Positions 34,303-57,659 of a DNA stretch of 64,000 bases are shown here, one piece after another. The DNA lies in the sequence record SRR31156797_1009; one strand, 5' to 3'. A program made the translations under genes and the position numbers. The notes below the pieces were generated by a model that worked only from the letters and a program-made list of their open reading frames with translations, ran no database searches and was not told the origin of the DNA. Numbering within the stretch: the stretch's first letter is position 1; each line of letters opens with the position of its first letter.

Positions 34303-34305
34303 AAT

Positions 34306-38106: not shown

Positions 38107-38111
38107 TTATA
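38107..38111. repeat. 5-bp target-site duplication TTATA (left)
   Basis: Same 5-mer at 46212-46216, each directly abutting an IR. Confidence 0.88.
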
Positions 38112-38149: not shown

Positions 38150-38238
38150 AAAGCGCCCCAAGTGGTTCCCCCTCCTCTTAAATGTCTGACTGTTGTAATA
38201 ATAATTTCTAATTGCGAGACAGTAAAAAAACGCGATCG

Positions 38239-39609: not shown

Positions 39610-39611
39610 AT

Positions 39612-41453
39612 TTACGCCGTTCCTTTTGATTCTATCGGAATGAGAATGGTAAAAGCTGTTCCATTTGGCCCGGTATATTCAACTGTGATTTCGCCGGAAT
39701 GGGCTTCGACAATCTTGCTCACGATGGCAAGGCCCAACCCTGTTCCGGTCTGTTTGGTCGTGAAGTACGGATCAAATATGCGCGACACGTCAGCGTCAGG
39801 AAGACCTGCACCTGTATCTGAAACCGTCAACTGCAAGGAAGCCTCTTGTCTGCTGGCATTGACTGCAAGTGAGCCTCCATCCGGCATGGCCTGAATGGCA
39901 TTGACATAGAGGTTGATCATGGCTTGTGTCATTCGATCCGGGTCGAGGGTGACATTTCCTATGTCTTTGGCTGCCTCCAAGGACACGGACACGCCCGCGC
40001 TTTCGGCTTCCTGTTTAACCAAGCGCAGAGAGCTTTCAAGAAGCGTTGAGACATCCGTGTCGCGCAGTTTGACGTCAGCCGGACGAGCCATTTCAAGGAG
40101 TTCGGATATGACTCGGTTCAGTCGATCAACTTCAGAGGTCATGACCTCTGCTGCCTTTCGATTGTCGCTGCCTTCATCAAAAAGGGAGCCGAAGTAGGTT
40201 GCATAGCCCTTGATGGAACTCAGAGGGTTGCGCACCTCATGAGCAACACCTGCGGCAAGATGACCAATAGCTGCCATCCTATCGGCTTTGCGAACCTCTT
40301 CTTGGAGTTCTTTGACCTGACTCAGGTCGCGAACCATAAACAACTGGCCGACATTGACTCCCTCTTCGGTGATGATGTCAGTAACAACCGCCGCTATAGG
40401 CAACTTACGTCCGTCATTCAACGCAAGTTCCATTTCTTTCTCAACTACCTGCTGTTCGGTATTTACTGAGGAGCGAAGCACCCAGAGTTCATCGGGCAAG
40501 AACGTTTTGGCCTGTTGTCCCACAATCCGTGTGATATCATCATAATCACGCGCCAACAGAGCAAGGGCAATGTCGTTTGCATAGGTGATTCGTCCATCAG
40601 GATCACATACAACCAGACCTTCTGGGATGTTCGCTACCATCTCTGCGGTCAACGCTTGAGAGTCCTGCAAAAGTTTCTTGGACCGTGTGTGGCTTTGCAT
40701 CCAGAACAAGGACACCACGCCACCAAGGCCCAAGAGCAGCAGGATACCTGACATGGTCAATGTTAATGAAACGTCTTCGGCAATGGCCTCCTCGAACGGA
40801 GCTACGTCCATACCGATAAATATGGCAGGTCGTTCGGCTGGGTCTAATATCCTGTCCTGTTTAAGTCCACTCATCCAGCCCGGTTGGCACCAATCATCGG
40901 ACATGTCTCCTGACTGTCTGCCCATCATGCGCTGCATCATTTGGCTTCTTCTTTGCTGCATTGTGGCAGGTTGGTCAGATTGTGTGCGCTGTGCCAAAAC
41001 AGGGAGGAATCGCTTGTACACCTCGAAAGACTTTGTGCCTTCGGATTCACCTACGACACGCCACTGAGAATCCTTGGTGACAGCCAACTCGGTCATATCC
41101 TTTTCGGAAATAAACTGCTGACCGATTTCAACCTCATTACTATGTGCAAGAATTTCTCCGGAGGAGTCTACCACGGCAATGTAGAGGATGTCGGGTTGGG
41201 TCGCGATCTCTTGCATCAACACCTGCAGGTTGGGTCCCTCACCGAGCATGCCCATCATTCCAGTACGTGTTCCTGCTTCAAAGGCTTTGATCAAGGCCGA
41301 GCCTTTCTCACTGAGCACCCGTCCCATATATTGTTTTTCGCGATTGTAATTCATGAATGCCAAAACGAGCACCACGATTACAAGGATAAGGCTCATTCCG
41401 ATAACAGCCCAAGGCGACATATTTCCCAAAAAAATGTTGATTCTTTTCTTCAT
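39612..41453 (-). CDS. Sensor histidine kinase with PAS, ZraS/HydH-like
   Basis: EKGSALIKAFEAGTRTGM periplasmic motif; VAHEVRNPLSSIKG; GTGLGL. Confidence 0.88.
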   Translation of the reverse strand: MKKRINIFLGNMSPWAVIGMSLILVIVVLVLAFMNYNREKQYMGRVLSEKGSALIKAFEAGTRTGMMGMLGEGPNLQVLMQEIATQPDILYIAVVDSSGEILAHSNEVEIGQQFISEKDMTELAVTKDSQWRVVGESEGTKSFEVYKRFLPVLAQRTQSDQPATMQQRRSQMMQRMMGRQSGDMSDDWCQPGWMSGLKQDRILDPAERPAIFIGMDVAPFEEAIAEDVSLTLTMSGILLLLGLGGVVSLFWMQSHTRSKKLLQDSQALTAEMVANIPEGLVVCDPDGRITYANDIALALLARDYDDITRIVGQQAKTFLPDELWVLRSSVNTEQQVVEKEMELALNDGRKLPIAAVVTDIITEEGVNVGQLFMVRDLSQVKELQEEVRKADRMAAIGHLAAGVAHEVRNPLSSIKGYATYFGSLFDEGSDNRKAAEVMTSEVDRLNRVISELLEMARPADVKLRDTDVSTLLESSLRLVKQEAESAGVSVSLEAAKDIGNVTLDPDRMTQAMINLYVNAIQAMPDGGSLAVNASRQEASLQLTVSDTGAGLPDADVSRIFDPYFTTKQTGTGLGLAIVSKIVEAHSGEITVEYTGPNGTAFTILIPIESKGTA

Positions 41454-41486
41454 TATTCGGCTTTCCTTTTTCAGATCGAGACAGCC

Positions 41487-41503
41487 TGTCTAAAATTTAG
41501 ACA
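41487..41503. promoter_or_regulatory. Palindrome, candidate enhancer (UAS) for the ZraR-like activator
   Basis: TGTCTAAA-A-TTTAGACA about 130 bp upstream of the sigma-54 promoter. Confidence 0.5.
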
Positions 41504-41633
41504 CTCTGCATGTCTCATGTGTACACTTTTTAAGCACTCACGCCTACCTTCGCAATCCAGATTACGCGGCGGATTCCGCTGGAAAATACTTTTCTCCAAT
41601 ATTAAGTGCGGCTTGTAGGTTTTTGTCATTCTT

Positions 41634-41648
41634 TGGCATCAGTCTTGC
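41634..41648 (+). promoter_or_regulatory. Sigma-54 -24/-12 promoter
   Basis: TGGCAT-CAGTC-TTGC, 50 bp upstream of the zraP-like start, divergent from the EBP/HK pair. Confidence 0.8.
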
Positions 41649-41698
41649 CTTAGTCATTGCAAAGCTTGTTCACAAAACACTCAATAGGAGAAATTATC

Positions 41699-42130
41699 AT
41701 GAAGAAGAACATTATCGCTTTGGCACTGGTTATGGCTGTTGGTCTCGCTTTCGTCGCAACCGATGCAATGGCATGGGGATACGGCAACTGCGGAGGCTGG
41801 AATGGCAATGGATACAATGCACAATCCTTCGACACCAACAACAAGGCGTATCAGGACTTCCTGAACTCCACCGCCAAGCTGAGGGCAGAGATTGATGCAG
41901 ACCGCGCTGAACTGGCCGCTATCATGGCCAGTCCTAATCCTGATGCAAAGAAGGTCCGCAGCCTGACAGAGCAGATCAATGAGGGCATCACCACCCTCAA
42001 TGAAAAGGCTGCTGCTCAGAATCTCCCGACCAATGGCATGATGGGTCCCGGCATGATGGGGCGTGGTATGGGCCGAGGCATGGGACGCGGCATGATGGGT
42101 TTCAATAGCTACAACTGCCCCCGTTGGTAG
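41699..42130 (+). CDS. ZraP/Spy/CpxP-family periplasmic protein
   Basis: Signal peptide, TAKLRAEI...ELAAIMASPNPDAKKVRSL, Gly/Met-rich tail; AGGAG RBS before MKKNII. Confidence 0.82.
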   Translation: MKKNIIALALVMAVGLAFVATDAMAWGYGNCGGWNGNGYNAQSFDTNNKAYQDFLNSTAKLRAEIDADRAELAAIMASPNPDAKKVRSLTEQINEGITTLNEKAAAQNLPTNGMMGPGMMGRGMGRGMGRGMMGFNSYNCPRW

Positions 42131-42199
42131 GTCTGAATCTCGAATTCGATGGGGGAGGAAACTCCCCCTCACCTCTCATGCTCATAAGGAGATTAAATC

Positions 42200-42463
42200 A
42201 TGTGGAGTTGTAATTTTGGAATATTGAATGGCGGTGGCCCCGGCTGGTTCATGGGAGGCGGCATGTTTGGATTCATTTGGATGATACTTTTCGCATTGAT
42301 TGCGGTGTACCTCATCTCCAAACTCTTTCAAGCCTTCACCTCCCGACAAGGTGGACGACCAGACAGGGATGACTCCCTGAACATCATCAAGGAAAAATTC
42401 GCAAAGGGAGAACTCACTGCGGATGAATACCAACGAATGAAGGAAGTGCTGACAAGACAATAA
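42200..42463 (+). CDS. SHOCT-domain membrane protein
   Basis: One TM; IIKEKFAKGELTADEYQRMKEVL. Confidence 0.82.
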   Translation: MWSCNFGILNGGGPGWFMGGGMFGFIWMILFALIAVYLISKLFQAFTSRQGGRPDRDDSLNIIKEKFAKGELTADEYQRMKEVLTRQ

Positions 42464-42490
42464 GATATCGCAATAAATGAAGTTGACGAC

Positions 42491-43117
42491 TTATGCATGT
42501 GGGGCATGTGGATTTAAAACCTGTATGCCATGCCCCCTTAACGCACCACTTGGACTTACATACCTATAAAGGGTGACCCGTGTTACCCCAAGCTCTTTAC
42601 AGAGATTCCTCACGCTAGTTGTCTTGTTTTTCATTGCAGCTTGCGCCATTTGTACTTGGGTCTTGTTTAGAGCGAATCGCCGTCCTCCCTTGCGACCGCG
42701 AGCGCGGGCGGCTTCAAGCCCTGCCATGGTTCGCTCTCTGATCAATTCACGCTCGAACTCGGCAAGGGCTGCGAAGATGCCAAAAATCAGCTTGCCACTT
42801 GCAGAGGTTGTGTCGATATCTGCCCCACGCCCTGTGAGGACTTTAAAGCCAATATCCTTCTCAGCAAGTTCTTGCACCACGCATACAAGGTGCTTGAGAT
42901 CTCGCCCTAGGCGATCAAGCTTCCAAATCAACAGAATGTCTCCTTGGCGTAGAGCTTTTAGGCAAGCGTCCAAACCTGGACGTTTGCCTTTCTTGCCGGA
43001 AGCCATGTCTTCATAAATGCGCTCAGCAGGAACTCCTGCCTTCAGCAAAGCATCTCGTTGGAGATCTAAATTTTGTGAGCCATCAGCTTTTGACACTCGT
43101 GCGTAACCAATTTTCAT
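42491..43117 (-). CDS. tnpR: Serine resolvase
   Basis: IGYARVSKADGSQ, WKLDRLGR, AEFERELIRERT, C-terminal HTH. Confidence 0.93.
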   Translation of the reverse strand: MKIGYARVSKADGSQNLDLQRDALLKAGVPAERIYEDMASGKKGKRPGLDACLKALRQGDILLIWKLDRLGRDLKHLVCVVQELAEKDIGFKVLTGRGADIDTTSASGKLIFGIFAALAEFERELIRERTMAGLEAARARGRKGGRRFALNKTQVQMAQAAMKNKTTSVRNLCKELGVTRVTLYRYVSPSGALRGHGIQVLNPHAPHA

Positions 43118-43253
43118 AGGCTGTTCACAAACCCTCGTTTGAGTTACATGTCCAATATAGTTCAGGTAGGTACGATATCCTGTACCTTATTCCGTATCAC
43201 AAACTATGTTAACAATACGTTATTGATTCTAGAAAAGATACAAGTGGGTTCAA
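43118..43253. other. Probable res site and divergent promoters
   Basis: Intergenic region between divergent tnpR and tnpA with imperfect palindromes; subsites not resolved. Confidence 0.5.
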
Positions 43254-46178
43254 ATGCCTCGCAGAACAGTCCTTTCCTCTTCCCAGAGAACCGTTTTTGA
43301 AGTCTTACCAAGCGTTCCGGATTTACTCACACGGTACTACGTTTTGGACGAAGACGAACTTGCACTTATTTCCAAATGTAGACGGCCACGCAATCGGCTC
43401 GGATTTGCTTTACAACTCTGTCTCATCAAATTCCCTGGAAGGGCCTTACGACCCGATGATGAAATTCCCGATTCCTTGGTCGAATTCATTGCAGAGCAAA
43501 TAGGAGAAGAGTCGGAAGTCTTCTGTGGCTACGCGGACAGAGACCAGACGCGCAGAGAGCATTTTAAGACCTTGATAGAGTTTTTCCGGCTTTCAAGATT
43601 TGGAGATAGTCACTATCAAGAGATGGTGCGCTGGCTGACGCCAATTGCTGTAGACAATCCAAAGAGTACTTTCCTTGTAGGTGCAACCCTAAATGAATTG
43701 AGACGTCGCAAAATTCTGCATCCTGCTTTGACAGTTGTGGAACGCCTCGTTGCCCAGGTGAAGATCCAAGCAGATCGCAGAGTCTACAATGAAGTGACCG
43801 GCCTGTTGTCCGACAGGCACCAGGCTGATCTTGAATTTTGGCTTAATCCACGAGGCGAGAAATCACAGAGTAGACTTTCATGGATTCGTCAACCTGCTGG
43901 CCGTCCTTCTCCTATAAATGTGATTTTGATAATGGAAAAGTTGGCCGCTATCCGGTTGCTTGATCTTCCTTCCGAGGTCTTGGACGCAGTACCGACAATT
44001 CGCCGCAAGCAACTTGCCCAAGAAGGTAATCGAATTGCTGTGCATAATCTGCGAATGTTGAATGAACAAAGACGGTATACGATCATGACCGTATGCTTGC
44101 TTGAAATTCAACGCTCCTTAATGGATGAGGTCGTCAACATGCATGACCGCATCATTGGCTCCCTAATGCGGCGTAGCCAACGAAAACAGGCTACTCAGCT
44201 ACAAGATGATGCAAAGAACATCAAAACAACCGTCAACGTTTTCTCAAAGCTTGGCCAAGCCTTAATCAAAGCGCGTGAGGAGCATTTAGACCCTTGGGAG
44301 CTAATCGAGGCTGAACTGTCCTGGGATGATTTTCGTGCAACGGTTGAAGCTGCTGAAAACCTGTCTCAACCTCAGCGGTTCGATTATCTCCATTATGTTG
44401 ACACGAGTTTCAATCAGATTCGGCGGTATGCTCCAACCATGTTGGAGCATTTTGACTTCCGTGCAAGCTCTGGTGGACGGGATGTTCTTACAGCTATTGA
44501 TATCATCCGTGACATGAACAAAACGGGCAAACGCAAATTGCCCGACCAAGTTCCTACTTCATTTATCCCAAAACGCTGGCAACCATTTATTTTCGAAACT
44601 GATGGCCTGAACCGTAGGTACTATGAACTGTGCGCTTTAAGCGAACTCCGTAACCGACTCCGTTCTGGCGATGTATGGGTACCAGGCAGCCGTCAATTCG
44701 AAGATTTCAACGAATACCTCATGGGCCCTTCCGCTTTTCGTCAGCTTCAGGAGTCTCGTGAAATACCTGTAGCGGTCGAAACGGATTGCACAAGATACAT
44801 CTCAGAGCGGAAAGAACTCCTTGAAAGTCAGTTGGAAGAATTCCAAAGGCTTCTCAGAAGCAATGATTTGGATACGGTTTGTCTCAAGAATGGTAGGCTT
44901 TCAATGCAACCATATAGGGGTAACTCTGTTCCCGATGAAGCCAAGCAATTCAGCCGGCGCGTATATGCAGAGCTTCCTCGCATTAAAATTACCGATCTCC
45001 TCATTGAAGTAGATCAATGGACAGGTTTCACCGAACAATTCACTCATTTGAGAACTGGCCAACCATCTCAAGACAAGGAATCTCTTTTGTCAGTGATTCT
45101 CTCAGATGGGATTAATCTTGGACTGACAAGGATGGCAGAGGCTAGTTCCGGGGCCTCGTATAAACAGTTGTCTTGGGTTTCGGATTGGTATGTCAGAAGC
45201 GAATGCTATTCCAGAGGGTTGGCTGAGATAACCAATTACCACCACATAATTCCACTTGCAGGACAGTGGGGCGATGGCTCCACCTCGTCTTCAGACGGGC
45301 AGCACTTTCCTCTTGGCAGTGTTGGTCGAGGCCTCGGAGATGTAAATGCTCGATATGGGCGAGATCCCGGTGTGATTTTCTACACCCACATCTCGGATCA
45401 ATACACCCCATTTCACAGCCAGCTCATCAACGCAACAGCACGCGATGCAACCTATGTCCTGGACGGCTTGCTTTACCATGAAAGCAATCTCAATATTGAA
45501 GAACACTACACTGACACCGCAGGTTTTACGGACCATGTGTTTGCTCTTTGCCATTTGCTCGGATTTCGTTTTGCTCCCCGAATTCGCAACATAGGTGACG
45601 TAAAACTATACACCTTTGGCAGCGCAAAACGCTGGGCTGACCTGGAGCCGTTGATAGGATCAAAGATCAAGCAAAAGGACATTGAGAACCAATGGGAAGA
45701 GATATTGAGGCTGGCAAGCTCAATTCGATTGGGAACCGTTACGGCATCCCTCATAATTCGTAAGTTGGCCTCCTATCCACGGCAAAACAAATTGGCTTTG
45801 GCCATACGCGAGCTTGGGCGTTTGGAAAGGACTCTTTTCCTATTGGATTGGGTCAAAAAGCCAGAACTCCGTTCTCGTGTTCAAGCCGGTCTGAACAAAG
45901 GGGAGTCCAGAAACGCACTTGCTCGTGCAGTGTTTTTCAATCGACTCGGAGAAGTCCGAGATCGTTCTTTTGAAAGCCAGTGCTATAGGACTTCTGGTCT
46001 AAACCTTGTCGTAGCTACGATAATCCTCTGGAACACGGTCTATCTGGAAAAGGCCGTGAAAAAAGTACGAGAGGAAATGGATGTTCCGGAGGAGTTTCAG
46101 AGCTACCTTTCTCCGCTTGGATGGGAGCACATCAATCTCACAGGAGATTATATCTGGAATCTTGGCCAAACGCCTTAA
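43254..46178 (+). CDS. tnpA: Tn3-family transposase
   Basis: 974 aa; NRLGFALQL, SSSDGQ, HYTDTAG, LNKGESRNALAR, LSPLGWEHINLTGDY; stop overlaps the right IR. Confidence 0.96.
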   Translation: MPRRTVLSSSQRTVFEVLPSVPDLLTRYYVLDEDELALISKCRRPRNRLGFALQLCLIKFPGRALRPDDEIPDSLVEFIAEQIGEESEVFCGYADRDQTRREHFKTLIEFFRLSRFGDSHYQEMVRWLTPIAVDNPKSTFLVGATLNELRRRKILHPALTVVERLVAQVKIQADRRVYNEVTGLLSDRHQADLEFWLNPRGEKSQSRLSWIRQPAGRPSPINVILIMEKLAAIRLLDLPSEVLDAVPTIRRKQLAQEGNRIAVHNLRMLNEQRRYTIMTVCLLEIQRSLMDEVVNMHDRIIGSLMRRSQRKQATQLQDDAKNIKTTVNVFSKLGQALIKAREEHLDPWELIEAELSWDDFRATVEAAENLSQPQRFDYLHYVDTSFNQIRRYAPTMLEHFDFRASSGGRDVLTAIDIIRDMNKTGKRKLPDQVPTSFIPKRWQPFIFETDGLNRRYYELCALSELRNRLRSGDVWVPGSRQFEDFNEYLMGPSAFRQLQESREIPVAVETDCTRYISERKELLESQLEEFQRLLRSNDLDTVCLKNGRLSMQPYRGNSVPDEAKQFSRRVYAELPRIKITDLLIEVDQWTGFTEQFTHLRTGQPSQDKESLLSVILSDGINLGLTRMAEASSGASYKQLSWVSDWYVRSECYSRGLAEITNYHHIIPLAGQWGDGSTSSSDGQHFPLGSVGRGLGDVNARYGRDPGVIFYTHISDQYTPFHSQLINATARDATYVLDGLLYHESNLNIEEHYTDTAGFTDHVFALCHLLGFRFAPRIRNIGDVKLYTFGSAKRWADLEPLIGSKIKQKDIENQWEEILRLASSIRLGTVTASLIIRKLASYPRQNKLALAIRELGRLERTLFLLDWVKKPELRSRVQAGLNKGESRNALARAVFFNRLGEVRDRSFESQCYRTSGLNLVVATIILWNTVYLEKAVKKVREEMDVPEEFQSYLSPLGWEHINLTGDYIWNLGQTP

Positions 46179-46211
46179 CGTGCAACTTTGTCCGCTCTAT
46201 GGAGTGCCCCC
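46174..46211 (-). repeat. Right 38-bp inverted repeat
   Basis: Reverse complement GGGGGCACTCCATAGAGCGGACAAAGTTGCACGTTAAG; followed by TTATA. Confidence 0.9.
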
Positions 46212-46294
46212 TTATAAGGCATAGCTGCGCCCCGTCTGTTTACAAATAAAACTGAATGCAGATATTATTGTAGGGTCTCAACGAAGGAGTTGTC

Positions 46295-47296
46295 ATGAAT
46301 AAGATAGCGAAGCATGGGATCAAAATGTACGTCCTGATTTTTAGTATCGTCGCCATAGCAGGACTTCACTTCAGCGGCCTCCACGGCAGCCTCGGACTTC
46401 ATGGAGTCCATCGGGAACTTTTTTTCATCCCGATCCTCCTTGCTGCATTCTGGTTCGGCCTTAAGTCCGGCGTAGTGACAGCTATAATTGTGTCCGCTCT
46501 TTTTATCCTCGGAATGGTGGCAGACAGTGCCCACATGCCTGCCGCCCTCATGATTTCCCAGGTCGCGGTTTTCATCTTCTCAGCAGCCCTCCTCGGTTGG
46601 CTCTCCGACAACCAACGCAAGAAGACCCAGGAACTCATCAATGCCGAAAAGCTCGCCACTCTAGGCGAAACAGTCGGGGTCATCAGCTGGGAAGTCAAGG
46701 ATAATATTGACGCGCTAAAAAGGCTTTTCAATAAGAGCGACGGATTGGCAAAGGCTGAGCTTAATAAGGATTTCAGAGCAGAATTGGATACCATAGATTC
46801 GTTAAGCCGCTCAATGACCCAATATGCAGCCAAGGAAACCCTCAATCTATCAACTATCGACATAAACGATGCAGTTCTGGAGTTGGTAAAGCTATACAAA
46901 ATTCACTACCGAGAAAAAGGAATCAACCTCGAAGTAAGAAAAGACCTCAGTGGTTGCCCGACAAAGGTTTCCAAAAATTCTGTATTATGGGTGTTATCCA
47001 AGCTGCTCGATAACGCCAAGGACGCCTCCAAGGCAGGTGCCAGTGTATTTATTACAACTCGTAGACATGGTGATCACTGTACGCTGGATGTGGAAGATCA
47101 AGGTTCCGGCATAGCTGAAGAGCATGTAAACAAGCTTTTCACCCCCTTCTTTACCACCAAGGAGGGGGGGACGGGCATCAGCCTTGCTGCCTGCAAGAAG
47201 ACCCTAAAAGAATTGGGTGGTGATATCACAGCCCGTAGTGTCGTCGGGAAGGGGTCGGTATTTACAGTTACTATCCCACGAGAAATGGAAAAGTAA
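46295..47296 (+). CDS. Membrane histidine-kinase-like ATPase with degenerate H-box
   Basis: N-terminal TMs; HATPase N/G1/F/G2 boxes (LLDNAKDA, DQGSGI, FTPFFTTK, GGTG); ISWEVKDN where AHE(I/V)RNP is expected. Confidence 0.8.
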   Translation: MNKIAKHGIKMYVLIFSIVAIAGLHFSGLHGSLGLHGVHRELFFIPILLAAFWFGLKSGVVTAIIVSALFILGMVADSAHMPAALMISQVAVFIFSAALLGWLSDNQRKKTQELINAEKLATLGETVGVISWEVKDNIDALKRLFNKSDGLAKAELNKDFRAELDTIDSLSRSMTQYAAKETLNLSTIDINDAVLELVKLYKIHYREKGINLEVRKDLSGCPTKVSKNSVLWVLSKLLDNAKDASKAGASVFITTRRHGDHCTLDVEDQGSGIAEEHVNKLFTPFFTTKEGGTGISLAACKKTLKELGGDITARSVVGKGSVFTVTIPREMEK

Positions 47297-47312
47297 TCAA
47301 CCTTCAAGAAAC

Positions 47313-47343
47313 AAGAAAGGCCGTCCAATGAACGGCCTTTCTT
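47313..47343. terminator. Bidirectional terminator
   Basis: AAGAAAGGCCGT...ACGGCCTTTCTT between convergent genes. Confidence 0.75.
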
Positions 47344-47368
47344 AATTTAAGCAAAGAAAGCCCAGCTC

Positions 47369-47839
47369 TTAAGGCTTCTCATTCTGCAAAGAGTAGATGA
47401 TATAATTCACCAGCGCCCACCGTTCCTCAGGCGAGAATTCCGGAAAAGCAGGCATCTCCAAAGCATCCACTCCATTTTGAATGATCCAGTATTTTTCACC
47501 TGGCCCATACATCTCACTGTGCTTTTTGTCCCTAAAGCTAGCTATGGACAACTCCATATCCGAAATAAGCTCTCCCTTGCCATCTCCCTTTTCACCGTGG
47601 CACATGCTGCAATTCTCATTGAATAGAGCTTTGCCCTTCTCTATTGATGCAACATCAGGAGTAACAGGAGTCCTATCCATCACCTTGTACTCATTAGGGA
47701 TAGCTTTTTGAGTCCGCATCATCGCTGAAGCGTGCTTTGTAGGTTCTTCGTGGTTAAGCCCTTGGTGAGCAGCCACATGAACAGACACCCCCAATAAGAT
47801 CAAAATAACCATCACACACAGACGACACAGCTTATTCAT
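47369..47839 (-). CDS. Monoheme cytochrome c
   Basis: Signal peptide, CSMCHGEKGDGKG, MPAF, ERWALVNYI; GGAGG RBS before MNKLCR. Confidence 0.88.
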   Translation of the reverse strand: MNKLCRLCVMVILILLGVSVHVAAHQGLNHEEPTKHASAMMRTQKAIPNEYKVMDRTPVTPDVASIEKGKALFNENCSMCHGEKGDGKGELISDMELSIASFRDKKHSEMYGPGEKYWIIQNGVDALEMPAFPEFSPEERWALVNYIIYSLQNEKP

Positions 47840-47880
47840 ACAACCTCCAAAACATGAGACAGCCAATACCAAGCAATATG

Positions 47881-48055
47881 CAGAAACGTTGTCCCCTCCT
47901 TGAACTCAAGCAAGTTGGTTTGCTGCTTGAAGCTGTCAAAGAGGTGGTGATAATCGGGCAACACACCAGCCGGGCCACGGTAAGTTGAGCGGAACGCTCA
48001 TCAAGCTCTCACAGCTAGGATAAAGAAGACACCTTCACCTTCTCCTTGGTAAGAG
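47881..48055 (-). pseudogene. Decayed internal fragment of a RecD2-like helicase gene
   Basis: Colinear similarity to 52418-52655, e.g. CACACCAGCCGGGCCACGGT(A/T)AGTTGAG and AGACACCTTCACCTT; frameshifted with a ~57-bp deletion. Confidence 0.8.
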
Positions 48056-48154
48056 GAAGACAAAATTGATGCGAAAGTATAAATCCCAGCTCTATTTTTG
48101 CTGTTCAATACAACATCAAGGAAGAGCTGGAATTACAATGTATTCGACAGCTTT

Positions 48155-48808
48155 CTAAAGTAATTTTTCCTTGACGTTGTCTATACCAACCCGGTCGACG
48201 AAGCGAGCAGTACGCTCTCGTTTTTTCGCGTTGGAATTATAGTATTCCAAAAATTGCTTCGTTAATGCCAGCACACTGTCTTTATCCAGATCTTCAGCCA
48301 GAATATCACCAATGCGAGGACGACGGGCCGAACTTCCGCCTATAACCAAAGTCCAACCCGATTTCTTACCAAAAAGGCCAATGTCACGCACAAAGCTCTC
48401 ACCGCAGCATAGAGGACACCCAGACACCCCTATTTTGGCTTTGGCAGGAAGATCCAGGGAGGTAAAAAAAGCTTCCAACTCTATGCCAAGTCCCAGAGAG
48501 TCCTGCACTCCAAATTTACAAACTGCCGTACCAGGACAAGCTTGAACGTAATGCACACACAATTCAGTAGCTTTTCCTATGTCTAACCCCAAGTCAGACC
48601 AAATAGGGTCCACATCTTCACCTTTCATACCCACTAAGGCGAACCGTTGTCCCGAAGTGATTTTGATGACCGGGATCTCATATTTTCTGGCAACTCCAGC
48701 TATACGCTCCAAGTCATCTGGGGTCACAATTCCCACAGGAGTCCGAGGAACAATGGCATAAGTACATTTATCACGTTGTAAGATTGCACCTTTGGGAGTG
48801 TCGGTCAT
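48155..48808 (-). CDS. Intact element-borne homolog of the disrupted nitrite/sulfite-reductase-type siroheme/4Fe-4S protein (217 aa)
   Basis: KITSGQR, ACPGTAVC, GVSGCPLCC motifs; gap-free alignment to the rejoined host gene; AAGGAG RBS before MTDTPKG. Confidence 0.92.
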   Translation of the reverse strand: MTDTPKGAILQRDKCTYAIVPRTPVGIVTPDDLERIAGVARKYEIPVIKITSGQRFALVGMKGEDVDPIWSDLGLDIGKATELCVHYVQACPGTAVCKFGVQDSLGLGIELEAFFTSLDLPAKAKIGVSGCPLCCGESFVRDIGLFGKKSGWTLVIGGSSARRPRIGDILAEDLDKDSVLALTKQFLEYYNSNAKKRERTARFVDRVGIDNVKEKLL

Positions 48809-48860
48809 TGCGGATTTCTCCTTGGTATTTTTAAGATTCATTACCCTTACAGAATGCCAA

Positions 48861-49262
48861 TCAACGTCGCTCAGTAGGAGGCATGGGCTTTTCGAGATCG
48901 GCCTTTGTCAGATTTCTTGATGCAGCGTTGTAGGCCCATTTTACAAGTTGGGCGGCCTGAGTGGATACCATCAGCTTGAGTTTAGCATTTTCATCTTCAA
49001 GCGCACTAATTCGATCTTGCTTTTTTTTCATCTCTTGAGGTGAAAATGAAATCTTATGCCCTTGGGATTCGCTGTTATGATCTTTTTTAGCGTAATATGC
49101 ACTCTTGATATCGTCATATTTCTGAAGGGTTTGCCTAGAATACTTAATACCAATAGATCGAGCAGACTTTTCAACAATGTTATCCCATGTAATCTTGCCC
49201 GTTAGGTCATTGATAACAGAAACTATCGCTTTTATACGATCTGGAGTTAAACGCTCAGGCAT
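48861..49262 (-). CDS. Small recombinase-partner protein (GinD/TnpC-like)
   Basis: 133 aa, HTH-like GKITWDNI..YSRQTL plus coiled coil; overlaps the third recombinase stop. Confidence 0.7.
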   Translation of the reverse strand: MPERLTPDRIKAIVSVINDLTGKITWDNIVEKSARSIGIKYSRQTLQKYDDIKSAYYAKKDHNSESQGHKISFSPQEMKKKQDRISALEDENAKLKLMVSTQAAQLVKWAYNAASRNLTKADLEKPMPPTERR

Positions 49263-51298
49263 AGCTCACCTACCTTCAATAAAGGGAAAGAGCTGTCTTG
49301 CCCTTCTTCCAAGTATTCTTGCCCCCTTTCATAATGGGCAACTATAATTTGTGAAAAGTCTTTGCCAGGTATGAGTTTGACAAAACTATTATCTGGGATA
49401 TCAGGATTTTCATTAATTGCATTTAATCCCTTAAGAACTGACAAGACCTGTTTGTGATGTATCAGAGAAGGATCAATTCCGACTATGGGATGCGCCTCTT
49501 GGCAATCAGCAATTTCCTTCTCCATCTTATTTATCAACGGCAGCAACGATTGGGAGAACCGACTGTCTCCTTTCACAAAAAGAGAGTTGGAACATAGAAA
49601 ATGGTCACCAATCTTTGGACAGATTTGACCGTCACCTAATGTACAGAACCCAACATCAATGACGTTAACCATCTCATTAAGCTGTCGCTCTAGGTACTCT
49701 GCCAACAAAGCTGGCTGGTTATAAATTTCATTCGTAAAATTAGTATTGCTTGGAGAAGCATCGCTTTGATCATTTATGGTTAAGGCTTTCTCAGCCAGAA
49801 CGACCTTATCAGCATGAGAGTAAGCCTGATTGTGTCTTATGTCTTTTCGACCAGCAAAATAAGCACGAGTCTGCTGAGCAATTCCACCATATTCACTCAC
49901 CGTATCTTGATAATGACGGAAGTTATGCGTTGAAATCTTTATTGGACTACCATCCTCTTCAGTAAGTCCGTGTCTGGCAAAGATAGTATTAGCGTAAGAA
50001 GCTGATCCAAACAATCTACAAACCGTACTCATGCTAACAGGCTGGATCATGACATTCTCATATGCCTTAGTATAATCTTTGAACCAATGAAGAGGGAAGA
50101 CTAACAAGCAATCTGAGTATTTCAATCCAGATTCTTTATGAAAATACGGGAAGTTATCCGGTAACAACGACAAAACATATTTCTCAATGTCTTTAAATCG
50201 AACCCGGTAGCTATTTTTGTTTTTATAAATAGGTTCAATACCAAACCCTTTAAAAATCTTGTGGTAAATATGAGCCCTTCCACAATTCAACAATCCCTTC
50301 AAAGCGACATGGTCAATATACTCTTCACTTCTAAGATAACTATACTCTTGAGGGAGATACATTTCTCCAGGGTTGTCTTCGTACCATAGAGCAATTTCTC
50401 TTGCTTTTTCGGTAACGTTCAGAATTTTACCAAGCGCTTCTAGAGTAAGCTCCTTCCACCCTCTGGGGACAGGCTTAGTTAATGGTGTCCCACCTTTTGC
50501 GGGGAACCAACGCAAACCAATAGCTCCTTCTATGCCTTCATGATTATAAACCACACAGTCAGTGCGCATAGACAAAACTTCACTAATTCTACAAGGATTT
50601 GAGAGAAGTATAACCCCAATAGAGGAAATAACTTTACAGATTTGATCTTTAGGATCGTTATAAATCTCACCCAACGCATACAGTGAACGATCTGTGGGCA
50701 GCTTGTCTGACCGATGTTCTAAATAGGCTTTCCCCGGCTCACGACCCGGACTGTTCTGCCGCACAGATCGAACCCACCGCATGGGAGGAATCTTCAATAA
50801 AGAGTTATCATTCAGGAACTTGGAAAGGACTTCTAACTTAGCACAGACGCTTGCTGCATTGTTGTGACAATAATAATCAACTGCCAACCTTTGGGCTTCA
50901 TTTAGCACATTTATATCTATGTTAGTAACACACGGAACACTGTGTACATTTACCAAGGCTTGTCCAAGAGCTTTAAGAGCACCCATTTGTGAAGCTAAAT
51001 CTTTAACATGCTTCATCCCATAAGAGTACCGCAAATAGGCTTTAGCAAAATCAACGAATGGCTTTTCCATTTTTACCGGATTATCATCTCTTGAGTCATC
51101 TCCAAAACGATACCAATACTGATTTCCACTCTTCCTAGATCGAAGTTCAATAGTCTTCGAAATTGGCCACTTCACATCACCCCAATCCAGATTAGCGCCA
51201 AAGACGGTCAACTCATTCTTGGCCATTGCGATAAAAGCGTTAACGTTCTCAATCGCGTCTACCTCACGCTTAGGTTTAAAATGTATGATTTGCGCCAT
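49247..51298 (-). CDS. Tyrosine recombinase 3 (GinC-like, 683 aa)
   Basis: CRISEVL, WFPAKGG, THNFRH, AGRKD..HNQAYSH; start reset to MAQIIHFKPK behind GAGG. Confidence 0.85.
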   Translation of the reverse strand: MAQIIHFKPKREVDAIENVNAFIAMAKNELTVFGANLDWGDVKWPISKTIELRSRKSGNQYWYRFGDDSRDDNPVKMEKPFVDFAKAYLRYSYGMKHVKDLASQMGALKALGQALVNVHSVPCVTNIDINVLNEAQRLAVDYYCHNNAASVCAKLEVLSKFLNDNSLLKIPPMRWVRSVRQNSPGREPGKAYLEHRSDKLPTDRSLYALGEIYNDPKDQICKVISSIGVILLSNPCRISEVLSMRTDCVVYNHEGIEGAIGLRWFPAKGGTPLTKPVPRGWKELTLEALGKILNVTEKAREIALWYEDNPGEMYLPQEYSYLRSEEYIDHVALKGLLNCGRAHIYHKIFKGFGIEPIYKNKNSYRVRFKDIEKYVLSLLPDNFPYFHKESGLKYSDCLLVFPLHWFKDYTKAYENVMIQPVSMSTVCRLFGSASYANTIFARHGLTEEDGSPIKISTHNFRHYQDTVSEYGGIAQQTRAYFAGRKDIRHNQAYSHADKVVLAEKALTINDQSDASPSNTNFTNEIYNQPALLAEYLERQLNEMVNVIDVGFCTLGDGQICPKIGDHFLCSNSLFVKGDSRFSQSLLPLINKMEKEIADCQEAHPIVGIDPSLIHHKQVLSVLKGLNAINENPDIPDNSFVKLIPGKDFSQIIVAHYERGQEYLEEGQDSSFPLLKVGELCLSV

Positions 51299-51323
51299 AG
51301 TTTTCCTCGTTCTATTGCTCCAA

Positions 51324-52034
51324 TTAGTCCCCCAGTTCTGCCCACCATTGTTCGCCGTCTTCCATTGGCATGGCCAGTGCGGTCCATTTAGTTCCTGTTT
51401 CTTCATATTGCCCAATCTGGTGCATGTGGAAGTGCCCAAAGTACCAATGCTTCGGTTTATAGCGATGAAGGATTGTGTCCAAAATCTGGCGAGTCTTCTC
51501 ACTGTGCTTTGCAAGCCAAGGAGCAGAGGCATACCCTTTGGGGGGTGGGCCTTCACGCAGCTTGAAACTTTGAGGGGCAGTATGTGAGATTACAATATCG
51601 ATCTCGATGTCATCAGGAATTTTAGCGATATCTGCAGCAGAAGGGATTTCATTTTGAAACCAATCCAATCCTTCGATTCTTCTCCACTGATCGCCTGAAG
51701 AAGCTCCACCAAAGAACAAAATATTCTGACCATTGGGAAGCGCCAAAACTGATCCACGAGGCTGGTAGTAGACGTTAGGCAGGACTTCGGTATTTCCCGT
51801 AGCCGCTATCTTGGATAGAGAGTAATGGTCCTCATGGTTGCCATCGATCCAGCGGATAACAACACCTTCATTATGAAGAGAAGGGTTCTCAGGCGGCCAG
51901 CCGTGATCTGGCAAACGAGGCCAATAGCCAAAATCCCCAACCTGTATTATTTGATTGGGTTGTTGTGTTTCACAGAGCCAATTAAGGACCTGAAAATCAC
52001 CGTGGATATCGCCGCAGATCAGGATTTTTTTCAT
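51324..52034 (-). CDS. Calcineurin-like metallophosphoesterase
   Basis: GDIHGD, GDFG, DGNHE, SHTAP, FGHFH. Confidence 0.88.
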   Translation of the reverse strand: MKKILICGDIHGDFQVLNWLCETQQPNQIIQVGDFGYWPRLPDHGWPPENPSLHNEGVVIRWIDGNHEDHYSLSKIAATGNTEVLPNVYYQPRGSVLALPNGQNILFFGGASSGDQWRRIEGLDWFQNEIPSAADIAKIPDDIEIDIVISHTAPQSFKLREGPPPKGYASAPWLAKHSEKTRQILDTILHRYKPKHWYFGHFHMHQIGQYEETGTKWTALAMPMEDGEQWWAELGD

Positions 52035-52035
52035 T

Positions 52036-54168
52036 CTACCACCTAAGCCCTACATTGCGACAATCAGCCGCGAATTTCCGTTCTAAGGCCCGTTCAAACT
52101 CTTTTTTGTCACCCGTAAGCACGACTTGCTTTTCGGCCCTTGTAATGGCCGTATACAACCATGAGGGGTCGAGCAACCTAGTCTGGTAAATCGGGACAAT
52201 GACTCGCTTCACCTGAGAACCTTGGCACTTGTGGCAAGTAATCGCATAGGCCAAAGAGAGATCGATGATCTGCCTCGCGTCGAACCTGACGACTTTATCA
52301 TCAAGGTTTGCCGTAAGGTCATATTCGCCACGATCGACGTCCAAAATATGCCCCAGACTGCCGTTGTAGACTCCACGCTGGTAGTCGTTCTTAAGGTGAA
52401 TCACCGGCTCGCCTGGACAGAAGTATTGCCCCAAGCTGCCCTTGAGTTCGGGCAAGTTGTTTTGCTGCTTATACTTGTCATGGAACTGGCGATTGAGCTG
52501 CCCCACACCAGCCGGGCCACGGTTAGTTGAGGTAATGATCATCAAGTCCTCGAAGCCGCCAAAGTCGTTCACGACCTGTTCAATGATTGCCGGGATTGAT
52601 TCCAGTGAAGCCGGGATGAAGGAGACACCTTCACCTTTTCCCTGATACTGAGAAAAAGTGGGCATACGCCTATCGCGCAAAGCCTTTGCCACCAAGGGGA
52701 TGCCGCTGTCTGCGGCCTGTCGATAAATCTTGTTGAGCCTAACCGTGATAGAATCGTCCTTCACAAGCTCATGGAAAACAAGGCCGAAGCCAATTGGGGG
52801 AAGCTGTGCAGGATCACCCGACAGAAGCAACCGGGACTCTTTTTTCATATGCTTCATCAACGCATGAAAAGTAGCCAGATCAACCATACTGGCCTCATCA
52901 ATAACAACTAATGTCCTTTCGTTGATCTCAGCCAGGTCGTTCTCTTCTTCGAGTTCGGCCAAGGTACGGGTTAACGTCTTTGCCTGCAGGCCCGTGCTTT
53001 GACTCAGTTTCAATGCAGCTTTACCCGAAAGGGTTGCCATGAGGGCGTTGCCGCCAAGCCTGTGCCAGAGCCGTACGACGTAACGCAGGATCGTGGTCTT
53101 ACCAGTTCCTGCGCCGCCTACCAGACAAGAAAGAGGCGAGCGCAAAATCTGAAGCATGGCCTGAAACTGTTCCTCGTCGGGCCTGATGTGACCAGCACTA
53201 AGCGTTGTGAGTATGTTCCTGACGTTTTGCTCATCGACTTTGATCTGGCCATCGTCCTCAAGCTGTCGCAAAGCTCCGATAACAGATCGTTCCATGAAGG
53301 CTGATCCAGGCGGCATCCACTTGCCGTCACGGTGGAGGACTGCACCGAATTCAAGCCCGAGCTGTACGGCATCGCACACTAGCTTAGAATCATCCAATTT
53401 AGCCATTAGCAGTGCTTCCAGATCAAAGAGACCAACTGAGGTAGAACCGGACGCTAGAATATCTCTGACAGCAGAATCAACGGCCCCAAGAAGTCGTTTG
53501 TTTGAAGCCTGAGGTGCAGCCGATCCAATTTCAAAAAGCACCTTGAGACCCAACGCATCGCATTGTTCCCAGCTCATCATTGACGCCATACACCAAGGAT
53601 TGTTGCGGAGCCGATTCACAACATCTGTTCCAAATGTGGTGGAACAGATTTTCAAAAGCCGGGGAGAGTCTATCCCATAAGATTGGAACCATGCAGCTAA
53701 GTCGGATTCTGCTTCCAGCCGTTTCCATTCACGGCAGACTAGAGAAGCAAGCCGAATAGAGAGAAGAGGACGGCTGGGCGCAATCACTTGGGCTATTTCA
53801 GACACGCTTCCACTGGACAGAACATTGGGCAGATTGTTGCCCCACATATCCCACAAACGATTTGCTCGGGTCGGGCCCACACCCGGGCAAGTATTGGACA
53901 GGAAATTAATCAGAAGCTTGCCTGTGGGCTTCTGACGGTATGCGTATTCAGCCTCCATCTGATCACCCCACTTCGTGTGCTTGATCGGTCCGGATACTTC
54001 CCATGTTTCACCCAATGAGGGAACGCCCACAATACGCGCAGCAATGACTTTGACCTGGATTTGATCGCAGGCCCGTTCATCATTGAGAATTTTCCCAGCG
54101 AAGATAGTACCGTAAGCCTTCTGGCTGACTATGCGCTTAACCTGAATCTGCACTGTTACTCCGGCCAT
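52036..54168 (-). CDS. RecD2/TraA-like SF1B DNA helicase
   Basis: HhH (PGVGPTRA), GGAGTGKTT, IDEASMVD, GDPAQLPPIG, YAITCHKCQGS, YTAITRA. Confidence 0.9.
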   Translation of the reverse strand: MAGVTVQIQVKRIVSQKAYGTIFAGKILNDERACDQIQVKVIAARIVGVPSLGETWEVSGPIKHTKWGDQMEAEYAYRQKPTGKLLINFLSNTCPGVGPTRANRLWDMWGNNLPNVLSSGSVSEIAQVIAPSRPLLSIRLASLVCREWKRLEAESDLAAWFQSYGIDSPRLLKICSTTFGTDVVNRLRNNPWCMASMMSWEQCDALGLKVLFEIGSAAPQASNKRLLGAVDSAVRDILASGSTSVGLFDLEALLMAKLDDSKLVCDAVQLGLEFGAVLHRDGKWMPPGSAFMERSVIGALRQLEDDGQIKVDEQNVRNILTTLSAGHIRPDEEQFQAMLQILRSPLSCLVGGAGTGKTTILRYVVRLWHRLGGNALMATLSGKAALKLSQSTGLQAKTLTRTLAELEEENDLAEINERTLVVIDEASMVDLATFHALMKHMKKESRLLLSGDPAQLPPIGFGLVFHELVKDDSITVRLNKIYRQAADSGIPLVAKALRDRRMPTFSQYQGKGEGVSFIPASLESIPAIIEQVVNDFGGFEDLMIITSTNRGPAGVGQLNRQFHDKYKQQNNLPELKGSLGQYFCPGEPVIHLKNDYQRGVYNGSLGHILDVDRGEYDLTANLDDKVVRFDARQIIDLSLAYAITCHKCQGSQVKRVIVPIYQTRLLDPSWLYTAITRAEKQVVLTGDKKEFERALERKFAADCRNVGLRW

Positions 54169-54617
54169 TCGGTGCGGAGAGAAGTCCCAGTGGATTCGAT
54201 TTGCGCCAACCTTGAAAGAAGCATGGCATTCTCTTCGCGTAAGGATTCGATCTCAGCCTCTTTTTCTGCGAGAACGCGGGCAAGGTTGTTCTTTTCGGTT
54301 GTGGTCCTTGCTAGGCGATCTGCGGCGGCTTTGTCGCTTTGATCTGCGAGCACACGAGAGCCAATTGATTTGACCCCTTGGACCAAACACAGTGCATTTA
54401 CGGGAGTAGCTAGCTCTGGTTTGCGATAGAAATGTTGCTCCTGGCTCTGGCGTAGACCAATAGCCTTTGCAATGGCCCGCACATTAACCTTGCCATCAGG
54501 TGTGATTGGCAATGTGGGCTGGCGCAGACTTTCAGATTGGGCATCCCAAGACGCATCAAGCTGCTCGAGATACGGCTCAAGTTTGGCGAGAATTTCAGGA
54601 GTAATGTTTTTGGGCAT
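54156..54617 (-). CDS. Small HTH and coiled-coil protein (TnpC/GmtX-like)
   Basis: GKVNVRAIAKAIG HTH-like segment, C-terminal coiled coil; coupled to the helicase. Confidence 0.6.
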   Translation of the reverse strand: MPKNITPEILAKLEPYLEQLDASWDAQSESLRQPTLPITPDGKVNVRAIAKAIGLRQSQEQHFYRKPELATPVNALCLVQGVKSIGSRVLADQSDKAAADRLARTTTEKNNLARVLAEKEAEIESLREENAMLLSRLAQIESTGTSLRTEWPE

Positions 54618-54625
54618 ACGAGTCC

Positions 54626-56230
54626 TCAGAAAGAGTCAACCATGTCGTCTTCAAGGTCGAGTTCTACAACTTCACCCTGTTGTATTTTTATAATAACCCT
54701 CTCGATTGCATGAATGGTCAAATCAAAAGACATGGCTAAACTGGGTTGAATGGCCTGCCCTCTTTCTTCGAAGGCTCTCAAATGAAGATCGCGCTCTCGC
54801 TTCAGAATCTTCAAATGCTCTTCATGAGTTTCGATGTCATTCCAGGCATTGAAGGAAAGACAGGTGTAGCAACTAAAAGGAATACGGGAGAGATAAGTTT
54901 CTGGCTCTAAAGAGTCTGCTAAATAAACTCCGCATCCAGTAGGTTTCACGCACACCCCTGTTTCTTTGGAGAGGTCTGAGGTTCTAACGGGGGTGTATGT
55001 TTGCCTTGTGCCCACCAGATTAGGCTTATCAAAAACTTTGCCTTTAAATGAGTCTATCAGGGGGGCGTAGTATTGGGCTACCCCTTTCTCAATGATATCG
55101 GCCATTTCTTGCCCCAAACGAACATACGCTCGGCATGTGACTGTATTTGAATGGTCCAACATTTGAGCTATAATATTAGGCCCATACCCCTGCAAAGCCA
55201 ACGAAGTACCTAAATAGTACCGTGCTCTACGAGATGAAATGCTAAGCTGTTTTCCTGTCCTAGATGGAATATGAACTTTTCTTGAGGCGTGACATCTAAA
55301 ACGAGAATTAAGAGCTGTCACCAAGGGATGATATTTCAAAGGACCATTTTCATTTTTGTCCCACTTGGAGTAGACCAAAGGTAACTGGCTTAAATCATAA
55401 TTTTCATCATAATATAGCGAAGAATATTCATTTTTTACGGTCTCAATTCTTCTTTGAATCAAGAAAGCTAAGTCTGAAGTGACTGTTCTATCCCGAAATT
55501 CCACACGAGGTTCAACATGGCCTTGCTTATCTCTTGGGACAGAAAGGATATATTTCGAGACAACTCCATCAACAATAACTTGTTTAAAGTCACATACTTT
55601 TAACCACGAAATCTGCCTAGGTCTGCACCCAAGCAAGTGCATCAGCAAAAACATCAGACAGAATGAATCATCCACTTTTCCAGCAGCGTACAATTCAAAT
55701 ACGTCTTTAAAGAGGCTTTGATATTCTTGCACTGTGTATGGCCCTTTTTCAGGGTCACAGGTCATGACAGCCTGATAACCAACCTCTGTAAATTTTTTAC
55801 TCTTAACAAAAAAATAGACATCATCTTCAACACCATCTAGTTTCAATTCATAGAACTTTTCAACATAGGCCTTCAGTGATCGACAATGTGACTTACGTGA
55901 TTTGTCAAAAAAGTTGACAAGTCTTGAGAATGAGAATTGATTTATTGAGCTATCTGCATCTACACAATCACGAAAAAAACTCTCAACAGCCTTATGATAC
56001 ATAAAAGCTGTCGAGAGACTATTCACTTCCACAAAATGAATCGTAACCCTTTTTATATTCCGAAAGAAATTAGCTGTAGCCTTACTCTGAATATCATCAA
56101 AATAAAAATGCCGCCGGTAAGATCCATCTGAAAGCTCCCAATGGTTGGGGCTGGGATCAAACACAATCCCCTGAAGACTGATGGTTTCATTTGGAAGGGT
56201 GTACTCTATATTTGGAGCAACACTGCTCAT
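54626..56230 (-). CDS. Tyrosine recombinase 2 (GinB-like)
   Basis: LGCRPRQI, PRDKQ, SRRARYYLGT, LDHS, RAYV, C-terminal CYTC; ATGA overlap with recombinase 1. Confidence 0.85.
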   Translation of the reverse strand: MSSVAPNIEYTLPNETISLQGIVFDPSPNHWELSDGSYRRHFYFDDIQSKATANFFRNIKRVTIHFVEVNSLSTAFMYHKAVESFFRDCVDADSSINQFSFSRLVNFFDKSRKSHCRSLKAYVEKFYELKLDGVEDDVYFFVKSKKFTEVGYQAVMTCDPEKGPYTVQEYQSLFKDVFELYAAGKVDDSFCLMFLLMHLLGCRPRQISWLKVCDFKQVIVDGVVSKYILSVPRDKQGHVEPRVEFRDRTVTSDLAFLIQRRIETVKNEYSSLYYDENYDLSQLPLVYSKWDKNENGPLKYHPLVTALNSRFRCHASRKVHIPSRTGKQLSISSRRARYYLGTSLALQGYGPNIIAQMLDHSNTVTCRAYVRLGQEMADIIEKGVAQYYAPLIDSFKGKVFDKPNLVGTRQTYTPVRTSDLSKETGVCVKPTGCGVYLADSLEPETYLSRIPFSCYTCLSFNAWNDIETHEEHLKILKRERDLHLRAFEERGQAIQPSLAMSFDLTIHAIERVIIKIQQGEVVELDLEDDMVDSF

Positions 56231-57513: not shown

Positions 57514-57563
57514 ACCATTTGTTTACAAAATATTTTATTACAGTTTACATGAAATCACAACTC

Positions 57564-57593
57564 AAAAAAAAAGATAGGGTGTCAATCCCTATC
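57564..57593 (-). terminator. Terminator inside the element end, upstream of recombinase 1
   Basis: Minus strand GATAGGG-ATTGACA-CCCTATC-TTTTTTTTT. Confidence 0.7.
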
Positions 57594-57653
57594 CTTCTAT
57601 TAAAAAAAGATAAAAGTCGTCTAAGTTTACATAGTAAAGTGCGGTGTAAAGCA

Positions 57654-57659
57654 ACAGCA
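57654..57659. repeat. Right att core / direct repeat ACAGCA
   Basis: Matches 27192-27197. Confidence 0.85.

Follow-up and report, generated by a model that had tools for sequence, protein, structure and literature searches.

A GInt-type island that splits a siroheme reductase gene carries a foreign, full-length homolog of that gene behind its recombinase operon

Why does an island that splits a host gene carry a complete homolog of the same gene at the end of its recombinase operon, and could this copy make up for the disruption? This question is raised by a 64,000-nt stretch of DNA (sequence record SRR31156797_1009; hereafter, the window), the features of which are listed in Table 1. The earlier note on this DNA had proposed that the homolog may be a long-standing backbone gene of the island family that marks the target specificity of the island.

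Table 1. Features of the island, its insertion site and its relatives (window coordinates unless a locus is named).
Feature	Position	Strand	Basis or remark
Island-borne full-length NIR_SIR homolog	48155..48808	-	translation, domain search, tblastn, tree, conservation
Spacer with AGGAG ribosome-binding site, 52 nt	48809..48860	-	AGGAG 8 nt before ATG
Hairpin 3' of the copy	48085..48131	-	folding vs shuffles
5' part (codons 1-137) of the split host NIR_SIR gene, with the Cys-Cys codons at its end	57654..58064	-	tblastn, G001
3' fragment of split host NIR_SIR gene	26943..27197	-	4 nucleotide and 0 amino-acid differences vs G001
attL copy of the 6-nt repeat TGCTGT (Cys-Cys codons)	57654..57659	-	junction sequence
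attR copy of TGCTGT	27192..27197	-	junction sequence
Host paralog, 221 aa, 38% identical to the copy	58093..58758	-	directly upstream of split gene, tblastn
GInt-type island, 30,456 bp between the TGCTGT copies	27198..57653	-	absent from G001 site
ginA-like tyrosine recombinase, 428 aa	56227..57513	-	Pfam Phage_integrase 1.4e-11
ginB-like large recombinase, 537 aa	54626..56239	-	NCBIfam NF041502 site-specific integrase 7.3e-73
orf153	54156..54617	-	80-86% identical in 6 related loci, travels with helicase
RecD2-like SF1 helicase between ginB and ginC	52036..54168	-	78-83% identical in related loci
Metallophosphoesterase	51324..52034	-	Pfam Metallophos 4.8e-12
ginC-like protein, 683 aa as called in database	49247..51298	-	match to pTROUS1 GInt third gene
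ginD-like small protein, 133 aa	48861..49262	-	match to pTROUS1 GInt fourth gene
AT-rich 3' island end	27198..27420	-	G+C 0.20 in last 103 bp, 0.30 over 223 bp
Cytochrome c, next cargo gene	47369..47872	-	62% identical to one beside CopA/CopB in L102
Nested Tn3-family transposase and resolvase in cargo	42491..46178	.	family search
CusCBA-like RND efflux genes, cargo	27897..35712	-	family search
HU genes upstream of related islands	L093 4877-5149, L102 4110-4388, L104 2916-3185, L105 4120-4389		

The open reading frame behind ginD translates into a 217-aa siroheme NIR_SIR protein with matches to the Pfam families NIR_SIR_ferr (6.2e-14) and NIR_SIR (2.4e-26), i.e. a ferredoxin-like half domain and a 4Fe-4S/siroheme domain. 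The CX5C and CX3C cysteines are both kept, as previously claimed, and the best solved relatives of the protein are chains of the F420-dependent sulfite reductase Fsr (E = 1e-14). In length, domain content and CX5C...CX3C pattern, the protein resembles the small siroheme sulfite/nitrite reductases and the C-terminal half of Fsr. Small stand-alone siroheme sulfite/nitrite reductases are named alSiR, and the D. vulgaris enzyme has 218 aa.

When the copy was compared with the window by tblastn, the host gene was found in two gap-free pieces ~30 kb apart: copy residues 3-135 match 58052-57654 (95/133 identical, E = 7e-63) and residues 134-217 match 27197-26946 (46/84 identical, E = 9e-30). These E-values exclude a chance match. 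Counted with the two-residue overlap, ~141/217 residues are identical between the copy and the rejoined host protein, in agreement with the gap-free, full-length alignment and the hand count of 139 in the earlier note. The 5' fragment is 71% identical to the copy, while the identity to the host gene overall is 64-65%.

As the reference for the empty site we used G001, the nearest relative genome available for comparison. In G001, the gene is intact (its product is 64% identical to the copy), the island is absent, and the flanks are 96-97% identical to the window, i.e. 59551-57650 aligns at 96.7% and 27197-25449 at 95.8%, and the two alignments overlap by 9 nt. Relative to the G001 gene, the halves carry ~24 nucleotide differences and one amino-acid change, the latter in the 5' fragment; they have thus not decayed, and the insertion is recent. 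The target consists of the Cys-Cys codons of the [4Fe-4S]/siroheme-binding CX3C motif in a small stand-alone siroheme reductase gene, and the two island junctions have no similarity beyond the exact 6-nt TGCTGT.

A host operon ends with the split gene. Its other members (window 58093-62002) encode the 221-aa NIR_SIR paralog, a cupin and two Fe-S proteins, with a Crp/Fnr-type regulator encoded divergently. This paralog is the only one seen in the window besides the split gene and the copy; in G001, two NIR_SIR paralogs that are 38% identical to the copy are present in addition to the intact gene, and the one in the window corresponds to one of these two. Among 80 homolog loci, a tandem NIR_SIR pair is present in three, all from Pseudodesulfovibrio or Salidesulfovibrio, while 77 have no tandem partner; thus, members of the family mostly work without a partner, and one copy by itself might in principle take over from the split gene.

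Read from attL on the minus strand, the island has the gene order ginA-ginB-[orf153-recD2-phosphoesterase]-ginC-ginD followed by cargo and an AT-rich end. The four gin genes are collinear with those of the pTROUS1 block, a canonical four-gene GInt at the end of ssb on a P. aeruginosa plasmid (identity/E of 33%/7e-54, 27%/7e-37, 32%/4e-96 and 36%/3e-21). Together with the tblastn matches and the empty G001 site, this collinearity bears out the claim that a GInt-type island disrupts the gene and carries the homolog straight after ginD. The ginB-like protein scores 246 bits against NF041502, which is under the 350-bit cut-off. For the ginC-like protein, we found no Pfam match, and no PDB match with a profile built from a 5-sequence alignment; its homologs carry the name integrase from their sources, and the GinC alignment contains invariant H458, R461 and Y493 residues, which by our reading of the motif fit an HxxR...Y pattern. 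The orf153 product had no family match at E <= 0.001 in Pfam or PADLOC, and its marginal matches were to GvpT in NCBIfam (E 0.0069) and phrog_2658 in PHROGs (E 0.00057). None of the three inserted genes, for orf153, the helicase and the phosphoesterase, could be assigned to a system with PADLOC or PHROGs. The metallophosphoesterase had no match in any related locus examined, and recD2 abuts ginC in those loci.

GInts are defined by a ginABCD block at one end, cargo starting from ginD and an AT-rich other end; their GinA and GinB are tyrosine recombinases, and GinC has a recombinase fold with an incomplete catalytic motif. Moreover, GInts insert site-specifically, excise as a circle and have imperfect direct repeats of 10-17 nt on either side (Bardaji et al. 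2017, PMC5385486). The island in the window shares the ginABCD order, the start of the cargo at ginD and the AT-rich end with the GInts in the part of that paper used here; it also has short flanking repeats, and its insertion is apparently site-specific. By contrast, it has three extra genes, for orf153, the RecD2 helicase and the phosphoesterase, between ginB and ginC, and its repeat is exact and only 6 nt long, a length that fits the 6-7-nt staggered cut proposed for GInts (PMC5385486). Also, its host, which from the tree described below appears to belong to the Desulfovibrionaceae, lies outside the Proteobacteria, Bacteroidetes, Firmicutes and Verrucomicrobia named as GInt hosts in that part of PMC5385486.

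Several observations suggest that the copy is apparently functional. In the family alignment, 68 columns are conserved to at least 95% across the other 81 members, and the copy retains the conserved residue in 67 of them; the median row deviates at 0.5 of these columns, the most divergent row at 4 and the G001 ortholog at 2. Moreover, the copy starts 52 nt after the ginD-like gene (end of the latter at 48861, ATG of the copy at 48808), on the same strand and with a ribosome-binding site, and it is followed by a hairpin, a placement that matches the earlier description. The hairpin has a 12-bp stem and a folding energy of -24.8 kcal/mol (z = -2.8 vs shuffles); it was not reported by a simple terminator scan, which found a cleaner terminator at 47344-47312, after the gene next to the copy. 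A promoter scan identified no promoter-like site in the spacer, and around the copy such sites occur at a frequency no higher than in shuffled sequence. Only 41/81 homologs have Cys as the first residue of the Cys-Cys pair and, therefore, the first Cys is not a ligand.

Altogether, we suggest, with about even confidence, that a GInt inserted into this gene together with a foreign copy that replaces the lost activity, as a trait of one lineage. The island has inserted, apparently by site-specific recombination, at the Cys-Cys codons of the host siroheme reductase gene. In the scenario that we suggest, the copy, which is the first cargo gene and is co-oriented with the gin operon and the host operon, would be transcribed with the gin operon, or by read-through from it, and would provide the activity lost with the split gene. 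With such a spare, a site in the middle of a gene would be open to the island at little cost, and the pairing of target and spare would be specific to this island lineage and not an old trait of the wider island family. Transcription of GInts enters from the host side and continues into the cargo (PMC5385486, in the part used here).

Among species-representative genomes, the copy is 61-74% identical to its 80 nearest homologs, and none of these NIR_SIR loci has a gin gene or a counterpart of the island helicase or cytochrome c in its flanks (up to 10 kb). We calculated a quick maximum-likelihood tree of 83 rows, in which the 80 loci were joined by G001 and the copy, with the host paralog as the outgroup; one duplicate locus (L002) and the third paralog (L003) were left out. 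In this tree, the G001 ortholog groups with Pseudodesulfovibrio and Salidesulfovibrio in a Desulfovibrionaceae clade (SH-aLRT 97), while the copy is in a separate 3-row clade (SH-aLRT 98), the other two members of which come from a Spirochaetota MAG and a Deltaproteobacteria MAG. As judged from this position outside the Desulfovibrionaceae clade, the copy is a xenolog, foreign to the host, and does not derive from the allele of this host, in line with the earlier note, which held that it is not a recent copy of that allele. In a set of 5.8 billion proteins, the nearest non-self proteins are 88, 87, 86 and 85% identical to the copy (P0027-P0030) and are followed by a crowd at 74-80%. On plasmids, the copy matches only nirB-type genes that are at most 44% identical, and viral contigs contained no relative of the copy or of GinC.

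The foreign origin also bears on a purely historical explanation. A minimal ancestor that was located upstream of a NIR_SIR gene in a Desulfobacterales-like donor could have captured this gene behind ginD when it was excised using a downstream pseudo-site, and the same-family target would then have arisen separately. The copy is foreign, co-oriented and 52 nt away from ginD, where GInt cargo begins (PMC5385486, in the part used here), and many of the proteins that are 74-88% identical to it come from Deltaproteobacteria or Desulfobacterales MAGs. However, this scenario leaves unexplained that the new target is of the same family; moreover, by eye, we recognised no trace of an old core in the spacer, and tblastn identified no NIR_SIR fragment at the right end of the island. 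We consider a by-product of this kind improbable.

If the copy were a long-standing backbone gene that marks target specificity, as the earlier note had it, related islands would be the place to find it. The position of the copy at the end of the gin operon is compatible with this idea, and so is the observation that tmk-splitting islands keep a dNMP kinase beside their recombinase core (PMC10653934, in the part used here). We examined 19 GInt-like loci (L093-L101, L102-L106, L107, L112-L115), some of which are probably the same element twice. In 0/19, a NIR_SIR match at E <= 1e-3 was found either upstream of ginA or after ginD. The Gin proteins of the closest relatives are 35-51% identical to those in the window (GinD, 47-51%), and in four of them (L093, L102, L104 and L105) an HU (Bac_DNA_binding) gene immediately precedes the island, the target being the 3' flank of this gene. 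Their cargo includes either a P-type ATPase or a porin together with cytochrome c, CopA and CopB, and they also carry the orf153-recD2 insert between ginB and ginC. In addition, the G+C content of the copy is 0.47 and cargo-like, while that of the four gin genes is 0.41.

Searches for further islands showed that GinC homologs are rare. They were present in 0/401 genomes of a host-phylum sample and in 0/5 chosen genomes (query, the 769-aa ORF), in 8/401 genomes in the family of a Pseudodesulfovibrio genome, in 3/401 genomes in the class of the MAG with the nearest homolog of the copy, in 5 metagenome loci, and as 25 of the 7999 candidate proteins scored in the 5.8-billion-protein set; plasmid GinC matches occurred in 66 records and were at most 32.5% identical. 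For GinD, the same protein set returned only the query itself in an insensitive search that missed the 47-51% identical GinDs of the related loci. One of the 85-88% identical homologs of the copy sits on a 670-kb contig, and we found no GinC match on contigs sized like those of these homologs, which is a weak check. Among the loci sampled, no diverged island was found at a NIR_SIR target. At the depth sampled, a long-standing backbone gene is not supported, because of the 0/19 loci, the relatives at HU sites and the cargo-like G+C content; with 0/80 of the nearest NIR_SIR loci having gin genes in addition, we regard this reading as highly improbable.

The island itself was found in a second host. 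Sequence from the window was detected in four public sequencing runs, none of them listed as an RNA run, and one metatranscriptome gave no contig, a blank that has no bearing on expression. A contig from one of the runs (X2) is identical to window 56047-57653 and then differs from 57654 to 60332 by 287 differences and 4 gaps. The first differences in the flank are spaced by threes and correspond to third codon positions of the host gene. Because junction-spanning k-mers in X2 must derive from real reads, the island occupies the same codons in a ~10% diverged host, and this identical island is the only other element that we found at the NIR_SIR target. G001, which is much closer to the host in the window than the X2 host is, has an empty site. 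Occupation of the same codons in the diverged host together with the empty site in G001 indicates, at the level of contigs, recent horizontal spread and strict site choice. The attL core of the X2 host is TGTTGC, as compared to TGCTGT in the window (57654-57659), and integration, therefore, tolerates a change at two of the six core positions. In the 41 homologs that have a Cys-Cys pair, it is encoded as TGCTGC (28), TGCTGT (8), TGTTGT (4) or TGTTGC (1). In a third run from another study (X3), pieces at least 99% identical to the island are present. One contig of this run follows the window from 48607 upward and is unlike it below this position, which is inside the NIR_SIR copy; the diverging letters do not continue the reading frame of the copy, and the contig may represent a rearranged variant, an insertion or a chimera.

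The core sequences also relate to the possibility that the copy serves the island, as a decoy, an immunity site or an aid in finding the target, rather than host metabolism. The homologous Cys-Cys codons are present in the copy, as TGCTGC where the host has TGCTGT. However, the island integrated into a host with a TGTTGC core, and a one-base difference gives no evident immunity. Moreover, tyrosine recombinases do not use long homology, and the conservation of the whole protein points to selection on the enzyme. A role for the copy in the life of the island is, thus, barely credible. Self-immunity by means of the TGCTGC core in the copy was rejected, the core of the second host being TGTTGC.

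That the copy offsets the disruption is plausible on the sequence evidence, with the chances about evenly balanced. For an island with ~20 cargo genes and a pool of some 3000 families, the chance that one cargo gene matches the family of the target is ~1%, a rough estimate rather than a computed value; such a match is unlikely to arise by chance, though it was noticed after the fact. This post hoc character and the restriction to a single island lineage argue against compensation. In addition, a copy with 64% identity and different regulation need not replace the host protein, given that the operon of the latter includes Fe-S proteins and a paralog. Because other NIR_SIR paralogs are present, loss of the split gene may also cost little.

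These considerations lend some weight to the alternative that the NIR_SIR gene is ordinary cargo, i.e. an accessory gene of a metal- or stress-resistance island that matches the family of the target by coincidence and compensates for nothing. Related islands carry varied cargo without a NIR_SIR gene, the G+C content of the copy is like that of cargo, and paralogs of the split gene remain, one beside it in the window and a further one in G001. On the other hand, the match of ~1% by our rough estimate speaks against coincidence, a siroheme reductase is outside the copper and efflux theme of the remaining cargo, and the copy takes the first cargo position in the orientation of the gin genes. We judge ordinary cargo to be unlikely, and favour replacement of the lost activity by the copy.

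Apart from the genes in Table 1, the cargo includes sensor kinases, a sigma-54 regulator and a SpoIIE phosphatase, and, judging from its cytochrome c, it may keep the remnant of a copper-resistance cluster. In L102 (14467-17616), genes for a multicopper oxidase (CopA) and CopB lie beside the gene for the cytochrome c related to that in the window. The Tn3-family pair adjoins a gene for a 333-aa sensor kinase.

Islands in tRNA and tmRNA genes, dusA, prfC and guaA repair their target by means of a fragment that they place at the att site. If the copy is active, the island in the window would, like such att-fragment islands (Islander, in the part used here), limit the damage of its own insertion; however, those islands bring a short duplicated end at the junction, while here the junction is unrestored and a whole gene starts 8.8 kb inside the island, as counted from the ginA end. 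A closer parallel is the 65-kb island that splits tmk in P. putida KT2440 and supplies an essential dNMP kinase (Wirth et al. 2023, PMC10653934). In this island family, the kinase gene is kept beside a TetR gene, the genes for two tyrosine recombinases and one for a protein of unknown function (PMC10653934). As far as the part of that paper used here goes, both islands split a gene and encode near their tyrosine recombinases a protein of the same function, which for the copy is predicted from sequence, and both were recently acquired and are absent from close relatives. By contrast, the replacement in the tmk island is a phage-type analog that is essential by experiment and kept in all islands of the family described there, whereas the copy is a true homolog (64%) with a predicted function and is present in a single lineage (0/19 related loci). 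Also, the island in the window is a GInt in a sulfate reducer. By this analogy, a self-replacing island is a rare strategy that has already been described, and the present one is not new in kind. The tmk case is the only precedent found in the literature searched, and the supplementary tables of PMC5385486 and PMC10653934 may contain parallels.

The targets of GInts are intergenic sites, the ends of genes, or 5' ends that receive an outward promoter, and P. aeruginosa islands at a duplicated nrdA are among the GInts; insertion probably leaves the targets not fully inactivated (PMC5385486, in the part used here). The island in the window is inserted mid-gene and destroys the reading frame and is, therefore, an exception to this statement of Bardaji et al.: while GInts have been described as target-sparing, here the target is destroyed and a complete homolog of foreign origin comes along. 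It is possible, though we are inclined to doubt it, that the spare allowed a GInt lineage to shift from harmless gene-end targets such as HU and ssb to mid-gene cysteine codons of a metalloenzyme. If so, cargo would decide which targets an island can afford, and replacement-bearing islands could colonise conserved coding sequence across distant hosts. If the spare works, the island would be the second case of landing in a gene and replacing it, the first with a true homolog, and would tie cargo content to target choice. Independently of this, a GInt with a built-in helicase module is now moving between marine sulfate reducers and carries metal-efflux genes.

The helicase module differs from its surroundings. 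The orf153-recD2 segment (52036-54617) is 78-86% identical to the corresponding segments in L093, L094, L095, L102, L104 and L105, as compared to 35-51% for the Gin proteins, and its G+C content is 0.515, as compared to 0.41 for the gin genes. More distant GInts have a 29-32% identical RecD2 after ginD instead. The module seems to have been exchanged between island backbones or to be far more constrained than they are. Among the related loci, L096, L098, L099 and L100 have another conserved upstream gene order in common; ginB is apparently split into two ORFs in L093 (6535-8159) and L102 (5775-7402); and L095 has a second, partial ginD-like fragment (5027-5161) ~2 kb after ginD. Finally, the left ends of the island in the window (57514-57653) and of its relatives at HU sites (L093 ~5150-5225) share a GCACTTTA motif ~15-25 nt from the junction as well as a G+C-rich hairpin ~60-90 nt in, and the shared GCACTTTA motif and hairpin may represent the architecture to which the recombinases bind.
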